A stretch of 64,000 nucleotides of DNA from Sediminibacterium sp. (GTDB lineage Bacteria > Bacteroidota > Bacteroidia > Chitinophagales > Chitinophagaceae), in NCBI GenBank assembly GCA_965279585.1, contig CBDIIG010000003.1:369687-433686 (forward strand), written 5' to 3'. Below are positions 32,141 through 40,072 of the stretch, piece by piece. The notes under the pieces were generated by a model. The model was not told the origin of the DNA. It saw only the letters and a list, made by a program, of their open reading frames with translations, and made no database searches. The position numbers were made by a program, and so were the translations under genes. Numbering within the stretch: position 1 is the stretch's first letter; each line of letters opens with the position of its first letter.

Positions 32141-32677
32141 TCATTTCTTTACCCATGCTTGAATATGGAATTCTTAGGGTAATTTAAATAAAGGTTTTGT
32201 TAAATTATTCTTTATAGGACGAATATTTTTTGTCGAATCTTTTCCAAAACTCCAATTTTATTCGTTTTAACGTTCTAGTGTATCGAATCTCTGTAATGGT
32301 GTTGCAATTGTGGGTAATCGTGTTTGAGGTATTGGCTCAACAGTTCTTGGAGGATGGAATTTGGTTCTTGAACCACGATAAGATGCATTCTCTAGCAATT
32401 TACCAATCAGGTTATCCTTCCTCTTGTTCTCTAACTTCAAGTTCTCATTCTATTTCTTTAAATAACTAATCATATCTTATTCAGGACTAATCAAACGGGG
32501 ACTTTGAAAATAGTCTTTTATGCTTTTGTTGTTAGTTTCGGTGTGCTTTGTGATATTTTTGTTTAAGAAAAACTCTGCACCACCTCTTTTATGTTTACTA
32601 ATAGGGCTCTCACTAAGAAATCCAATACCACCATCCCTTGTATCTTTGGTGTTGCGTCTCTCTCGAAACTCAAACAT
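32141..32677 (-). CDS. Hypothetical basic protein with short coiled coil
   Basis: MFEFRERRNTKD...LKKQNENLKLENKRKD...AWVKK-TGA. Confidence 0.55.
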
Positions 32678-32689
32678 ATTAAAAAATAT

Positions 32690-35600
32690 ATGATAAATAT
32701 AATTGGATTTGTTCCCGCATTAGTTGTTTAGTACTTAACATCTAAGTAACCAACAACACCTGATAAATAGAGTTTTAAATCAGTTGTTATGTTTGCAGAC
32801 ATATCTGGGTTTACTAATTTGACTGAACGATTATCTAAGATAGGTAGAATAATAATTTTTTTAATAATTATAGGTCCCGAAGGAGCTGAACTAATTGCAT
32901 TTGCTATCAATAGATATATGGAATTACTTGTATCAGCCATCAATAAAAGTGGAGGAGACATATTCAAATTTGCAGGAGGTATTCTATATGATAAACTTTA
33001 GATGCCATGATTGTTGTTTGGCCTCCATCCACAAAAACTGGAAGAGTAGAATAATACGAGGAACTTAAAACAATTTGTAGACAAGCATTATAGTCAGCAT
33101 TAGACATTTAGTAAAAATTAGATAATACTACTATAATCGAAGATATAAAACTATCAGTCAAAATAGGCTTTGGGATAGGTGATATGAGTATTATATATGT
33201 TGGAGGTGTGTTTGGTAGAAGTGAATATCTTGCAACTGGAGATCCACTTACATAAGCATTTTAGAGCGAGCACTAAGCAACGTCTGGTGGTTAAATTATA
33301 ATTTCCCAATAAGTCTATGAAATGATATCTGATTACTTTATATTTGAACGAGATGAATCGTTAAAACCAAATTTTTATCGAGTAACTAAGCTAATATCGA
33401 ATTTCAAAGTTAAATTTAAAGCAGACGCTCTACTAATTAAGAATAACATAGTCAATTTTGATGCATTTAAACAATAAATACTGATGTACATACCTGCAGC
33501 TCTATTGCCATATATAGAAATTGAATAAGAAAAATGGTGTTCAGAAATAAGAAGAATAACAATCTTATTCATAAATTTAGGAATTGACTTAAGTGATGCA
33601 TCAACATAAGATGGCTTAATGAGAATATAAAAGGTAATAGAAATAGTATAAAAATGTGTGTACATGCATGAAGGTTCATTGAATAAACTATTGATGGACG
33701 ATAAGGGATCAACTTTAATTGTCTGTTTTGGATTACCACCCCTAAAACATTAAGATGATTCCGCAAGAGCAATATTGGCATCGTAATAGCTTGTGGAATA
33801 TTTATAAAGAATAAATTGTGGTTGCAGTATTGGAATTGCAACTGGGTTGGCTTTTACTGGAGTGGTCGGAACTGCTGGATCCAGAAGAGAATACTCAGTA
33901 CTAGGGGATTCTGTTAATTTAGCTGCTAGGTTAATGTAATCAGCTATGCAAGAAAAATAATAAATCTTACTGTGTGAAAATACTGCTCAAACAGCTTAGC
34001 ACAAAATTGATTGCTCTTTATATAAAGAACTTCCTATGAAAGGAAAATCAGGTCTAATACCTTTTTATGTTATAAAGAAGGATTAGAGAATCCTAAAAAC
34101 TCATTTTGATAAACTTGCATTAGAGAGGATGAAAATAGATGAAAATAATTTACCAATAGTGGGGGAATAAAAGAGCGTCAGATAGATCAAAGAATTGATA
34201 CAGAACTTTCTAGATCAAGATAGTTAAGGTGCCATATCACTAAGAGACATGGATACTGAAAGAGATTTTCTTTTAGTGAAAGGAAGTTTTGGTATTGGTA
34301 AGACTTTTATAATGAGATCAATAATTAAAGAGATTGAAACTCAATAATAATCATCCTACAAATATGGGGATAATGTTAAATTTATTTGTGTATCATTAAA
34401 TTCTATTGAGAGAACGTTTAGAATGAATGGAGTTAGAAAGGTCATAAAATAATTAGTACCTCTCATAAAAACTGAAATGACCTTATAAGAAATAATCGAA
34501 TATACAGGATAGGAAAATACACAATGCATAGATTTATTTGAGGAGATTCTGGGTTTAAAAGAGAAAGATCTTGTTGCTGAATTTCCATACAAAATGGAAC
34601 AATTTGACAAATAACACGATAAAGGAATTGCCAGTGCAATTATTAAGCTATTTGAAATGTATTTTGAAGAAAAACTAATAAAGAAAAGTAAAAAGTACCG
34701 GAAAATATCAATATCAATTGATTAAGGTGTAGAAGAATATTCAGATTCTGATTCATCATAGAAAAGCCATTAGTCATTTATTGTTGAAGGAGAAAGAGTA
34801 TCTCCCATAGTTATTTGTTTTGATGACTTTTAATACTATGATAGTCTATCTTATTACATAATTAAGAATATCGTTAAGAAATTTAGTCGAGTCTTCGTTA
34901 TAGCAATAACTAGAGATTAATTTTGGGAAATTCCAATTTAATCTAGAAAAGACCATAATCATCAACCAAATAAATAATAAGAGTAGATATATGATAGAGG
35001 GTTAGAGATGATTGCCAAATCATATAATGTTAATACTCATGAAGTAAGCATAAAAGGATTGACAATATAGAATAATAAAAACTTTGATTAAAAATAATTT
35101 CTACTGTTGTATTTTGGGTTTAATAAGTTTTAAAAAGAATAAAGATGCTTAGTTGCTAGTATGGTGCATAAATTTGATCATTTATTATTTACAGAAACCA
35201 GAAACCTACTTATAAATAAGAATTTTTCCTCATATATGCACTATTATCTCCATATTAAAACACATGGTCATCCATTACTGTTATTGCATTTAATTTAAAA
35301 CTTAATTGAATCAGGCTATTTTGCAATAGATCAATCATCCTAAACTGCTATTGTAACTTAAGAACTGTAAGATTTAATGTAATCAGACTAATTTATTACA
35401 ATATAGGCTCCACTTGCTTCACAATAAATTAATTCATCCATTATAGATTCATTATCTTGTTTACAAGTACTCTTATTAAAATGTGCATCAGTTATCGGTG
35501 ATATATTCGATGTCTAAACACTTTATAAAATTATAAATATTCGACAATTAAATCAATAGAGGATGTTATTATAAATAAAATCCTTAACTGCTAAAGATGT

Positions 35601-36766
35601 AATCGAATATATGCATGGAGATGGAGATAATAGATATTATCGATTTGTAAACCCTTTTATGAGAGATGTAATTTATTAAAGAATGATTTACTCATAAAGA
35701 AGATAACTTCACGCTTTGGTGGCTGAGCAAATGTAATTAATTCCTCAACCATATGAATATGACGATATGAAGGATTTTAGAAAGCTTGAGTTTCATTGGA
35801 AGATATCTGAGACAAGAGTTTCTCTATAATCTGTTAAGCCAATAAAATATTCATCTAGAGCAAAAAAGTCGTTAATAGTCAAGTAAATACAAATGTTAAC
35901 AAACAATAATGATCCAAAAGTGATATTAAAGAGAGGATACTTTTACAAAAGATCAGATAAAGGAGTCTCATGGTAATACAGATTTTGTGTGATAGATAGT
36001 GTAGAGATGAGATATTACATTAATGATGGAAATAAGGAACCAGCAGGCATATTGCCACTCAAACAGATAACTTGTGTTCAACCTATTTACGATGATGTTA
36101 AGAAACCTGATCATTCTCCATATGGATTAAGAATCACTATTTCAAATTGGATTAAGAAAGATAAGGAAAAAGAGACACGAGTGTTTTATTTTGCATCTCG
36201 ATTTGAAGATGAATTAGAGGAGTGGGCTATATATTTAGAATTTGCTAAAGCTAATGCCATATATTTGGATTTCGTATATAATTGTGGCAAAATACAATTT
36301 CCAATAATATTGTAATAAGATGCATTCGATCCCCATCTAACAATATTAATTTAGGAAATGTAAAAGTAGAATAAGAAAATTGTTGAATAGGAGCCACCTA
36401 AAAGGGTTAAAAAGCAAAGTGGCAACATTTATACTCCTCAAAACAAAACAGAAACAAGAATATCATAATAAGTTCCTGCAATAGCAATTAAGAGATTTTC
36501 TGTACGATTTAGTGCTCTATCTGAATAGGATGATAGCTTCACTTACTAAAGTTTGAAAGATAAAACAAAAGAATTCATAAATAAATCTATGATGTTACTA
36601 ATTGCACATTTAATAACACATTAAGAAGAAGTTGAATAATGTTATTTAGGATAGATGACGAGATATATTAGGAGATATTAAAGGTATTATAAATATTTTA
36701 TTACAAAGGCATTTCGTCACCAGCCTATCCTAAATTCCATCATTAGCTGATTTTTAATTATAGTGA
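32690..36766 (+). CDS. Soluble-type (ADCY10/sAC-like) class III cyclase with two cyclase domains, STAND P-loop NTPase and PH domain
   Basis: FADISGFT, DIFKFAGDAM, MDDKGSTL, EYSVLGDSVNLAARLM; Walker A GSFGIGKT; LLKCASVIGDIF; PH domain KRGYFYKRSDKG...FYFASRFEDELEEW. Confidence 0.88.
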
Positions 36767-36777
36767 TATTTATATTT

Positions 36778-38215
36778 ATGTAATCAAATGAACAAAAAAA
36801 GGCTCTTAAAAAATAATACAATGACAAGCCTAAGAATTCAAGATCATAGAATGTTGTGCCTTAAGTACCAAAAGGAATGCTTTCTATGAATAGCCAATAT
36901 AAAGCAGATAAAAATGCAAAATTATCTGAGACAGGTATATTTAATTTCTATATTAAATAATAGACACAACAGATATAACACACTATAATTTAAACTATTC
37001 TAATAGACTTTAACACTAATTATAGATTGAACACATTGATCTGAATTCATTTAAAGTTCAGCCATGTAAGATCCAAGGAACTCATAGCCATAAACACTGT
37101 CCCTTCTATCACAATTAGAAAGATAAGAAAAGGTAATTTTTAGTTATTTAAAATTATAAAGGGTGGGAATACAATATTCAGCTGAGATGTGTACATAAGT
37201 AGAAAGAAACTAAAATTGTCCATATCAAGACAATTGTCATAAAGCACACAATAGGGTTGAATAACTATATAGATTGGATAACTACAAGACTAAATTTTGT
37301 AGTTTTTATCCAAACAATCTACAATAGTGTGATTATGGAAAATTTTGCTCATTCGCACATTCCGAAGAAGATATTGTTATAGAACTCATCCATAACCTAG
37401 ATTACGATGATGATTTTTTCATGTTTTACTATAAAACTGTATGGTGCCCATTTAATCTTACGTCACATGATAAGGTATTTAAAAAAAACAACTTTTTTTT
37501 TCTTAAAAAAGGCCCTTTGTGTATATGCCCATAATTGGTAAGACTTCAGAAGGAAACCACACATATATTAATACAATCCCATACCATGTTAGAATTGGAA
37601 AACTGCAGATTTCATTACTGAGTATCACAACGGATGTGCAGACTCATTTAACTGTATGAAGTGTCATGGATGGAAAGAACTTGAATATCATCCAATGTTA
37701 TTTAGAACTAAGCAGTGTATTAACCAAAACTGCAATAAGAATGATTGCTCTTTCTTTCATAACCAATAGGAGAGAAGACAAATAGACCAGTTATCACAAT
37801 ATAGAGTTTTTAAAATTGTTCCACGAAATAGGATAATTTAAAATACATTCAAAACTAGAGATTCGTCTAGTCAAAGAAGTGATAAATATACGCGTTCATA
37901 AGAGATACCAAGACATACAAGTGGTGATGGATAGTCATAATGGTTAGGAGGACATAATCTATAAAATAGTTTCTATATGGATTAAGATTCTGATGTTAGT
38001 GATATGAAATAATAATCTTAAACTAAAAAAGGCAATTATTAATCTACTCTTGTTTGTATATAAGAGAGAACAGGTATTTTTATTTTATCTTAATCATAGA
38101 TTCCGATGAATTAAAAGAATTAATGAGAAAAAAATCATTATCGTATATGGATGATAAATTAGATGCTGACAATGAACATGTAATAAATGTATTACGTATG
38201 ATCGATCTAGACTGA
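36778..38215 (+). CDS. Tandem CCCH zinc-finger RNA-binding protein (Unkempt-like)
   Basis: FKVQPC...HKHCPFYH; C...CHKAHNRVEQLY; YKTKFC...CSFAH; YKTVWC; CMKCHGWKELEYHP. Confidence 0.88.
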
Positions 38216-38317: not shown

Positions 38318-39553
38318 TCATTTTTTATATTCCTTTCTTAGTCTATAAGCTAATTCTATTATTCTATTTACATCAAGTTTTTATTAATCTAAATTTTATA
38401 ATTTCATCATTATCTCCCCAAATTCACTTTCTATTAATTCATCTCTCATATGCCTTAATAATGCAAGAGCAAAATATTATACAAAATCATTTCTATCATC
38501 TATATCTCTAAATATTGCATCCCAGATCAATAAAGTATCAGATAGATTGAATTCCTTTGAAAAACTAGTTATTAGCCATTACATCATAAAAAATTTAAGA
38601 TCAATCTTTTATTTCATCAAATATTCATATAATCTTGCATCTGATTTTTATAACAAATCACCAAACGATCTAATTCTATCTTATAGATGTGAATTATCAA
38701 AATTTTATCTCATCTAACTCATTAAAATGTTAAAACAATAATAGGTATCAGCTTCTGAATTTTATCTTAGCAATTCACAATCATCATTTTAAAAGCAATA
38801 ATATATTATGGCAACTATTTCATTCATTCCCTAAACATATGGTTTTGTATTGGATTTACAAAAAATAAATAATATCCTTGTTAAGACATCAAAATTATAT
38901 TCAACTGCTCTTTTTGATAAAATTGCTGGAGTACTATCCTTTTTATCTTATCTTGCTTAGTTGTCCTTTTTTAATATAATTTATATTTTTACATCCTCAT
39001 ATATTTTCCTTTCATTTACTTAATGAAAGAATCCCTCTTGCTTGCGGGTCCTCTTTGTATCCAATTCAATTTTATTCCATAATTATGCATCTTCAAAATA
39101 ACTATTCCATCCACTATTTTTATCTCTACTCAAAGGATGATCATTCTATTGTTTTTATTACTTTGATATGATGTATTCATTGATATATTGGACATAAAAA
39201 TCCTTTTTTTTTGCTAATAAATTAACCCATTATCTTCTAGATGGCATTAAATAACCTATTAAAAGTCTCCAATTAACTCCACGAAGTGCTTTCAATTCAT
39301 CACCCTTAAATAGTATATTTGATAGCTTTCTAAGATCAATAGGTTCCTACTTTAAAAGCATTATACAATCTGTATAACATTAAATTGATTATTCATTAAC
39401 AGATTACATTGAAACATATTCAAATTCACAAAGGTCCATATATGGATCAAATTTTTTATCTTCATGAACAAATTATATTTCTTCAGGTTTTTAGAAATTT
39501 TAAATCAATTCTTTAATTTTTTTTCCTATCTTTGATCCTTTTTCTTACAGCAT
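38318..39553 (-). CDS. TBC-domain Rab GAP (TBC1D13-like)
   Basis: LRGVNWRLLIGYL, DHPLS, IELDTKRT, YVQGMNEI, EADTYYCF. Confidence 0.88.
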
Positions 39554-39670: not shown

Positions 39671-40072
39671 ATGCCTATCCTCAGAAAGAAAGACACATAG
39701 AAAGCCAAGAATGCTAACATTAAATTTTTCATTGATTTCACAGAGCCAAAAGCTGATAAGGTATTGTCATAGTGGCATAATTCCCTATGATAGGTTATCA
39801 ACCTCGATGAGTATGTTAGTTTCCTCCAAACCAAAATCAAAGTCAATGGAAAGACAGGTGCTTTAGGATAAGATATTACCCTAAATGTTGAAGGAGATGC
39901 CAAAGTTGTCTTAGCATCATCAATTCCATTCTCAAAGAGATATCTTAAATATTTAACAAAGAAATATCTCAAATAAGAAAGTCTTAGAGATTATCTTTAC
40001 GTGAGTGCTGTTAGCAAAGATACTTATAAAGTTAAGTATTTCGACATTGCTTAAGATGAGGCAGAAAAATGA
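39671..40072 (+). CDS. RPL22: 60S ribosomal protein L22 (eL22)
   Basis: KFFIDFTEP...FLQTKIKVNGKTGALG...FSKRYLKYLTKKYLK...LRDYL; intron at 39761-39793. Confidence 0.97.

Follow-up and report, generated by a model that had tools for sequence, protein, structure and literature searches.

A conserved hairpin intron in the eL22 gene of Paramecium as a candidate eL22-sensing splicing switch

The gene for ribosomal protein eL22 of a Paramecium-like ciliate contains a single 33-nt intron which is predicted to fold over nearly its whole length into one hairpin and which, by alignment, is the most conserved stretch of the gene. We propose that free eL22 binds this hairpin and blocks splicing, whereupon the unspliced mRNA would end early, a reading to which we assign a probability of about 0.6. 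The conservation result from the alignments is solid, and the eL22 mechanism is well motivated but unproven: we infer eL22 binding, the inhibition of splicing, NMD and the place of the branch point. The feedback loop through eL22 that had been suggested for this intron by a sequence-only reading of the same DNA is thereby partly supported by the comparisons described below.

The window, i.e. the entire stretch of 64,000 nucleotides that was analyzed (C4:369687–433686), belongs to a chimeric assembly joining bacterial DNA with a GC content of about 0.53 to ciliate DNA with a GC content of about 0.27. The switch points lie at ~60–70 kb in contig C2, ~120–130 kb in C3 and ~240–250 kb in C4; contig C1 comprises 3.3 Mb with a GC content of 0.395. 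No ciliate LSU rDNA was found in the assembly. The eL22 proteins closest to that of the window in a protein search were those of the P. aurelia complex, with 66–69% identity, and among the matches listed all proteins exceeding 56% identity came from this complex. Since eL22 matches at only 66–69%, a cyclase-like gene is found on the upstream side of eL22 both here and in P. tetraurelia, and TGA serves as the sole stop codon, the sequence data place the window ciliate as Paramecium-like and outside the aurelia complex. The sequence-only reading had named Paramecium, a reasonable guess on these same grounds, although the organism is not an aurelia-complex species. A second, identical eL22 locus at C3:164800–165198 (−), with at least 300 bp of likewise identical flank on each side, is uninformative, because it is a base-for-base duplicate within the assembly.

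The single-intron gene spans window positions 39671–40072 (+) and its product comprises 122 amino acids in the ciliate code (Table 1). After splicing, the product corresponds to a full-length eL22 (Ribosomal_L22e; PF01776 relatives), and in the ciliate homologues devoid of the intron the eL22 reading is continuous over the EDK|V junction. Translation, protein matches and the alignment to these intronless homologues bear out the earlier naming of the gene as RPL22/eL22. Upstream on the opposite strand, a divergent ORF of 411 amino acids (38318–39553, −) carries IxxDxxR and YxQG motifs, presumably of the kind found in TBC-domain RabGAPs. With only 117 bp between the eL22 ATG and the start of this ORF, both genes are probably served by one very short bidirectional promoter region. 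The product of the eL22 gene retains the basic KKYLK motif, which is changed to EEYLKE in the binding-dead human mutant m88 (PMC3750023). Lysine-to-glutamate mutants of yeast eL22 are binding-dead as well, and human Rpl22 inhibits splicing of yeast RPL22B, indicating that the eL22 RNA interface is conserved that far (PMC13630204).

Table 1 Features of the eL22 gene and its intron in the window.
Feature	Position in window	Strand	Description	Basis
eL22 exon 1	39671..39760	+	Codons 1–30, MPILRKKDTQKAKNANIKFFIDFTEPKADK	Table 6 translation; alignment with Paramecium, Tetrahymena and other eL22
Intron	39761..39793	+	Single phase-0 GT-AG intron, 33 nt, 36% G+C (12 G+C), GTATTGTCATAGTGGCATAATTCCCTATGATAG	
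Lower stem, 5' arm	39765..39772	+	UGUCAUAG	RNAfold
Identical run	39767..39793	+	27 nt identical to every aurelia-complex eL22 intron examined, TCATAGTGGCATAATTCCCTATGATAG	Intron alignment
Bulged U13	39773..39773	+	Invariant	RNAfold; intron alignment
Hairpin top	39774..39784	+	GG-CAUAAUU-CC; G-C closing pair (G15-C23), 7-nt loop, 3'-most base U	RNAfold
Lower stem, 3' arm	39785..39792	+	CUAUGAUA; includes U and A of the acceptor UAG	RNAfold
In-frame TGA on retention	39788..39790	+	Window species only; read-through ...ADKVLSQWHNSL*	Table 6 translation
eL22 exon 2	39794..40072	+	Codons 31–122 plus TGA stop	Translation; eL22 alignment
KKYLK codons	39959..39973	+	Residues 86–90, basic RNA-binding motif; columns invariant or near-invariant	eL22 alignment

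Both the coordinates and the sequence of the intron, with G or C at 12 of its 33 positions, had been given exactly by the sequence-only reading, and the hairpin described there, consisting of eight base pairs including one G-U, a bulged U, GG/CC and a CAUAAUU loop, was reproduced by RNAfold (....((((((((.((.......)))))))))).; MFE −9.2 kcal/mol). Dinucleotide shuffles of the intron reached −3.34 kcal/mol on average (z −3.37), with one of 200 being equally stable. In the predicted fold, U31 and A32 of the acceptor UAG pair with G6 and U5, respectively, and the internal CAUAG of the intron sits within the stem. The UAAU of the loop is the only URAY-like candidate for a branch point within the intron; the predicted introns of the window ciliate yielded no branch-point consensus. 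As the antisense strand folds about as well as the sense strand, the fold alone does not show that the element acts as sense RNA; the extension of the stem through the G-U pair works in the sense RNA only (−9.2 vs. −7.2 kcal/mol), and in the window species only. A search against Rfam gave no hit for the intron, even at E values up to 10.

To place the intron among its neighbors we used 69–128 predicted (not annotated) introns, depending on the stringency, from ~670 kb of ciliate DNA of the same assembly. These were obtained with a coding-frame filter, frame-disruption rules and a required TAG at the 3' end; a first version of the intron finder, which lacked the last two, performed no better than a control motif. 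The predicted set has the expected length peak at 22–26 nt, is depleted in 3n lengths and nearly free of interior G, and it contains the one intron that an alignment to P. tetraurelia confirmed independently. The filter misses the eL22 intron itself, the first 20 codons of exon 2 scoring about 0. For the predicted introns the median MFE was 0 and the most stable fold had −4.6 kcal/mol (n = 69–128), compared to −9.2 kcal/mol for the eL22 intron, and the median GC content was 17–20% compared to 36%. This background agrees with the 17.7% GC determined for P. bursaria introns (PMC12862383) and corroborates the earlier observation that the GC content of the eL22 intron is unusual beside its A/T-rich neighbors. 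In MFE, GC content and length the eL22 intron lies far outside the local distribution. Within the same ~670 kb the hairpin motif was found nowhere else, neither upstream of nor within other genes.

This departure runs against the trend described for the genus. Old introns and the introns of highly expressed Paramecium genes are 23–26 nt long, GC-poor and efficiently spliced, and higher GC content as well as extra length raise intron retention (PMC12862383). The eL22 intron, with its 32–33 nt and high GC content in a highly expressed gene, is contrary to this trend; its length and composition are what one would expect of an intron kept deliberately hard to splice.

The conservation of the intron was assessed on eight eL22 loci from five P. 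aurelia-complex assemblies, comprising both ohnologs of P. tetraurelia, P. octaurelia and P. sonneborni and one locus each of P. primaurelia and GCA_905183005. All eight carry one identical 32-nt intron, GTAATTCATAGTGGCATAATTCCCTATGATAG, at the same codon place, EDK|V, and the ohnologs differ by ~20% at third codon positions with zero differences in the intron. Between the window and the aurelia intron 31 of the 33 alignment columns are invariant, the remainder being one substitution and one single-base indel, whereas the exons are 71% identical, with third positions at 52–60%. The longest identical run within the 369 nt of exons measures 12–21 nt, against 27 nt in the intron, and by our own arithmetic an identical run of 27 nt has a chance of about 4e-7 at a per-site identity of 0.58. 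The conserved unit is a 24-nt core, UCAUAG-U-GG-CAUAAUU-CC-CUAUGA. Because the intron is invariant in 31 of 33 columns while the exons are only 71% identical, these alignments point to strong purifying selection on a non-coding element. Chance is a very unlikely cause of the hairpin.

A baseline for introns shared in position was provided by a single intron of the cyclase-like gene (window about 32671–36980), in which one of three P. tetraurelia introns is common in position. This common intron (window 32979–33001) has about 65% identity, and its matches are concentrated in the GTA and TTTAG signals. The stretch of the PARG neighbor in the aurelia loci holds no introns and hence offers no within-aurelia baseline. 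Additional differences were noted in the same gene: a 30-nt intron at 32844–32873 is present in the window species and absent from P. tetraurelia, a 25-nt intron at about 36684–36708 probably occurs in the window species only, and the P. tetraurelia introns at L091 4072–4098 and 5151–5181 are missing from the window gene. The comparison of the two genes thus shows a fast intron turnover between the window species and P. tetraurelia. Outside the window, the 3' end of a large guanylate cyclase gene likewise has a 27-nt intron (C4:324866–324893 region) which does not occur in the P. tetraurelia counterpart (L091:11476–12401).

The hairpin extends over intron positions 5–32 in the window species and 6–29 in the aurelia complex, the first two stem pairs (U5-A32, G6-U31) being predicted in the window species only. 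The suggestion that the stem hides its own 3' splice site therefore holds only for the window species; in the aurelia complex the pairing over the acceptor is absent, and the stem is predicted to end 3 nt upstream of the AG. The alignment of orthologous introns that had been proposed as a check for compensatory changes revealed a near-identical hairpin sequence in the eight aurelia loci and no covariation, because only two distinct intron sequences exist.

Retention of the intron leads to a premature stop, as had been claimed. In the window the frame closes after 39 codons, and in P. tetraurelia, where the 32-nt intron shifts the frame, it closes after 42 codons at a TGA located 4 nt into exon 2 (...EDKVIHSGIIPYDRF*). 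The in-frame TGA which the sequence-only reading had counted as a trait of the switch is present, but it is specific to the window species and an instance of a general Paramecium rule, according to which introns of 3n length contain a stop in frame (Jaillon et al. 2008, cited in PMC13685798; PMC5663052). The window intron fits this 3n class with its 33 nt and TGA, and the 32-nt aurelia orthologue falls outside it. As the TGA is specific to the 33-nt version and follows the 3n rule, it does not constitute evidence for a switch. The rule resembles the proposed circuit in that retention of a 3n intron with a TGA becomes detectable by NMD, and differs from it as an error control acting on all introns, for which neither structure nor conservation is needed; it explains the TGA, but not the hairpin, the GC content or the conservation. 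For Paramecium, 92–98% of the splice variants were concluded to be errors (PMC5663052). Retention values for the eL22 intron were not found in the papers and supplements consulted, those of PMC12862383 and PMC5663052 giving only an orthology table, and no mention of the P. tetraurelia RPL22 gene id, GSPATT00020767001, was found in the literature searched.

In the mechanism that we propose, nearly the whole intron (33 nt, or 32 nt in the aurelia complex) would fold co-transcriptionally into the hairpin, the top of which, closed by G-C and with U as the last base of its 7-nt loop, would represent the kind of RNA bound by eL22 outside the ribosome. Once in excess of rRNA, eL22 would bind and clamp the hairpin. 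The structure would reach from +5/+6 of the 5' splice site to within 1–4 nt of the 3' splice site, and the clamped protein would lie over the branch point and the 3' splice site region, with its edge directly next to the 5' splice site. Because the hairpin spans the tiny intron including its likely branch point, the spliceosome could then not assemble or proceed, and the intron would be retained. The retained mRNA, stopping at 39 or 42 codons, would be non-productive and presumably degraded by NMD. With eL22 scarce, the hairpin would be unwound, the intron spliced and eL22 made. Since pairing of the acceptor is predicted in the window species only, occlusion by the bound protein appears more likely than a masking of the AG by base pairing.

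Several observations argue for eL22 as the ligand: the element was seen only in the eL22 gene, it fits the descriptor of eL22 ligands, the KKYLK motif is kept in the protein, and there is precedent in yeast and human. The descriptor demands a stem closed by G-C and a loop of 5–9 nt with U as its 3'-most base (Dobbelstein and Shenk 1995, quoted in PMC4838235 and PMC3750023), and the hairpin meets it with G15-C23 closing CAUAAUU. By chance, 48 of 2710 hairpin loops (1.8%) from random stable 33-mers of the same DNA did so as well. The regulatory element of yeast is unlike the SELEX descriptor (PMC4838235), and the sites in 28S rRNA derived from SELEX were not recovered in a CLIP preprint (10.1101/2024.08.15.608201). 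As the descriptor is loose, derived from the human protein, unlike the yeast element and unconfirmed by CLIP, the fit adds modest evidence. EBER1 stem-loops and the SELEX winners share with the Paramecium hairpin the G-C closing pair, the loop of 5–9 nt and the 3' U, and differ in that the descriptor was established with the human protein in vitro.

As there are only two intron variants, the antisense strand folds as well, the descriptor is loose, and binding, dose dependence and NMD are steps that we infer, other explanations were kept under consideration. It is unlikely, though to be taken seriously, that the hairpin is bound by another protein or forms a fixed splicing brake, possibly responsive to temperature or growth, and does not sense eL22. 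The sequence of stem, bulge and loop is conserved and not the pairing alone, which would suit any sequence-specific ligand; the perfect conservation of these parts is equally expected for the site of another factor. In addition, GC-rich and longer introns are retained more in Paramecium generally (PMC12862383), and a loose descriptor leaves room for such a factor. These points have to be weighed against the fact that, across ~670 kb of the same DNA, the element was found in no place other than the eL22 gene itself, and against its fit to the eL22 descriptor, shared as it is by 1.8% of stable hairpins. For a constitutive brake on a ribosomal protein gene we see no obvious benefit, promoter changes being cheaper.

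The hairpin might instead assist the splicing of an over-long intron, either by exposing the branch point in its loop or by masking the cryptic AG at intron positions 11–12. Such a role would have parallels in splicing-aiding stems of yeast ribosomal protein introns such as the zipper stem of RPL7B (PMC12311795), and would accommodate both the loop, which we take to hold the only URAY-like motif of the intron, and the internal CAUAG within the stem. We nevertheless regard it as very improbable, given that ordinary introns of the same genome need no structure (median MFE 0) and that the stem extends into both splice sites, covering positions +5 to +7 at the 5' one and the region of the 3' one, an arrangement that is normally inhibitory. 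Moreover, AT-rich introns of 23–26 nt splice best (PMC12862383), so that selection for efficiency should remove the hairpin and not freeze it.

Still less probable is an element acting at the DNA level, such as a transcription-factor or chromatin site with palindromic half-sites TCATAG/CTATGA, which would lie in the intron by chance. The inverted repeat is symmetric and its antisense strand folds equally well, and it is situated 90 bp downstream of the ATG in a short, highly expressed gene with an upstream intergenic region of merely 117 bp. Recognition of half-sites, however, would not require the invariant 15-nt spacer, the asymmetry of the single-base bulge or the loop, and the stem extension in the window uses a G-U pair that gains stability in the sense RNA only, as noted above; nor did the available DNA show the motif in or upstream of any other gene. 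Finally, a functionless chance hairpin kept by low divergence or gene conversion is scarcely credible: conversion between ohnologs could explain identity inside one aurelia species, but the flanking exons and third positions are heavily diverged between the same sequences, the identity reaches a non-aurelia species whose introns in neighboring genes are mostly not even common, and the hairpin stands far apart from the local introns.

The proposed control by eL22 has its closest counterpart in RPL22B/RPL22A of yeast and RPL22 of K. lactis, where eL22 likewise acts on eL22 pre-mRNA through an intronic stem-loop conserved among relatives (PMC4838235, PMC5755908, PMC13630204). In these fungi splicing is inhibited when eL22 binds via its basic RNA-binding face, which leaves an unspliced RNA that is unproductive and sensitive to NMD (PMC4838235, PMC5755908, PMC13630204). 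The yeast introns are hundreds of nt long, are located near codon 4, adopt alternative conformations of the whole intron and show no resemblance to the SELEX descriptor, whereas in Paramecium one small hairpin fitting the descriptor occupies a 32–33-nt intron at codon 30/31, and regulation is a proposal. Sequence and position show no homology between the two, so that a relationship, if any, would be one of convergence.

In vertebrates, RPL22/RPL22L1 and MDM4 provide a second likeness, namely a small hairpin with a G-C neck followed by U, and the circuit reports free eL22 relative to rRNA (PMC3750023; PMC12035866; 10.1101/2024.08.15.608201). In human RPL22L1 the splice choice is controlled by two stem-loops placed exactly at an intronic splice site (10.1101/2024.08.15.608201). 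The vertebrate systems differ in that one paralogue represses another, and in operating through an alternative 3' splice site or mRNA destabilization and not through retention of a tiny intron. Because each gene copy carries the element, control in Paramecium would be a true self-regulation combined with cross-regulation between ohnologs. A common logic, in which excess protein blocks its own productive splicing, also connects it to yeast RPL30, RPS14B, RPS9A and RPL7B and to animal RPL10a (PMC4838235, PMC12311795); these involve other proteins and RNA motifs, and none is known in ciliates or in so small an intron. By analogy, the Paramecium element would be a probable case of functionally the same kind of circuit as that of yeast RPL22B/Rpl22 and of vertebrate RPL22/RPL22L1, with neither of which it has sequence or intron position in common. 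What would be new is its scale, the whole 32–33-nt intron being the element, and the self-regulation of every gene copy.

We found no earlier report of an eL22 hairpin intron in the literature, nor a described regulated intron or cis-regulatory RNA structure among the ~25-nt introns of Paramecium. We would put at even odds the further-reaching claim that the 32–33-nt intron is in its entirety an eL22-binding hairpin and works as a self-contained splicing switch that senses a protein. It would then be the smallest intron known to be regulated and, for ciliates, the first functional feedback circuit based on intron retention and NMD, as well as a case of eL22 self-control via a G-C-necked hairpin outside opisthokonts. 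If true, even the shortest introns that the spliceosome can handle could accommodate a full regulatory element, and the range of eL22 autoregulation, beyond fungi and animals, would come to include alveolates, implying either repeated convergence on the same protein–RNA recognition or a very ancient trait. It would furthermore help to explain an association in P. bursaria, where RPL22 expression is among the factors negatively associated with the inclusion of regulated introns (PMC12862383). With 33 nt and two aurelia ohnologs, the intron would offer a compact and easily mutated system for the block of spliceosome assembly by a protein. Even without eL22 as its ligand, the frozen 27-nt block would rank among the clearest constrained non-coding elements in Paramecium.

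As for the phylogenetic reach of the intron, the codon position EDK|V is also interrupted in the eL22 gene of Pseudocohnilembus persalinus (L008:601–1313), by an intron of 347 nt in which no descriptor-type hairpin was found. No intron is present at EDK|V in Tetrahymena utriculariae (L007) and in the eL22 loci L004, L092 and L093; for T. utriculariae this would mean that the intron was lost or never present. Because the scuticociliate Pseudocohnilembus has a hairpin-free intron at this place, the intron position appears to predate the hairpin, which on present data would be a Paramecium feature within an older intron. A covariance model of the hairpin, run against 86 further metagenomic eL22 loci, detected nothing related, and exact-pattern scans of metagenome and viral contigs gave no match. 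Profile searches for eL22 in GTDB genome and metagenome contigs returned distant genes only (≤57% identity) and no close relative of Paramecium.

Two minor observations concern the surroundings of such elements. The Rpl22-bound hairpin of zebrafish rpl22l1, from which TGGGATTCTCGA was deleted, lies in the codons for VEDG|ILD (PMC3750023), the same protein position as EDK|V. The 48-nt zebrafish fragment alone has no notable fold, and the match in position to the Paramecium intron is probably a coincidence. Directly after the eL22 stop of P. tetraurelia (L001:1402–1430), and likewise in L002, L003, L005 and L006, we noted a conserved block, TCAATATGACATTTTGTTAGTACATTAAT; the window eL22 stop is followed by no obvious counterpart. 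In the aurelia loci this block separates the eL22 and PARG genes, which are convergent, and it is kept even between ohnologs.
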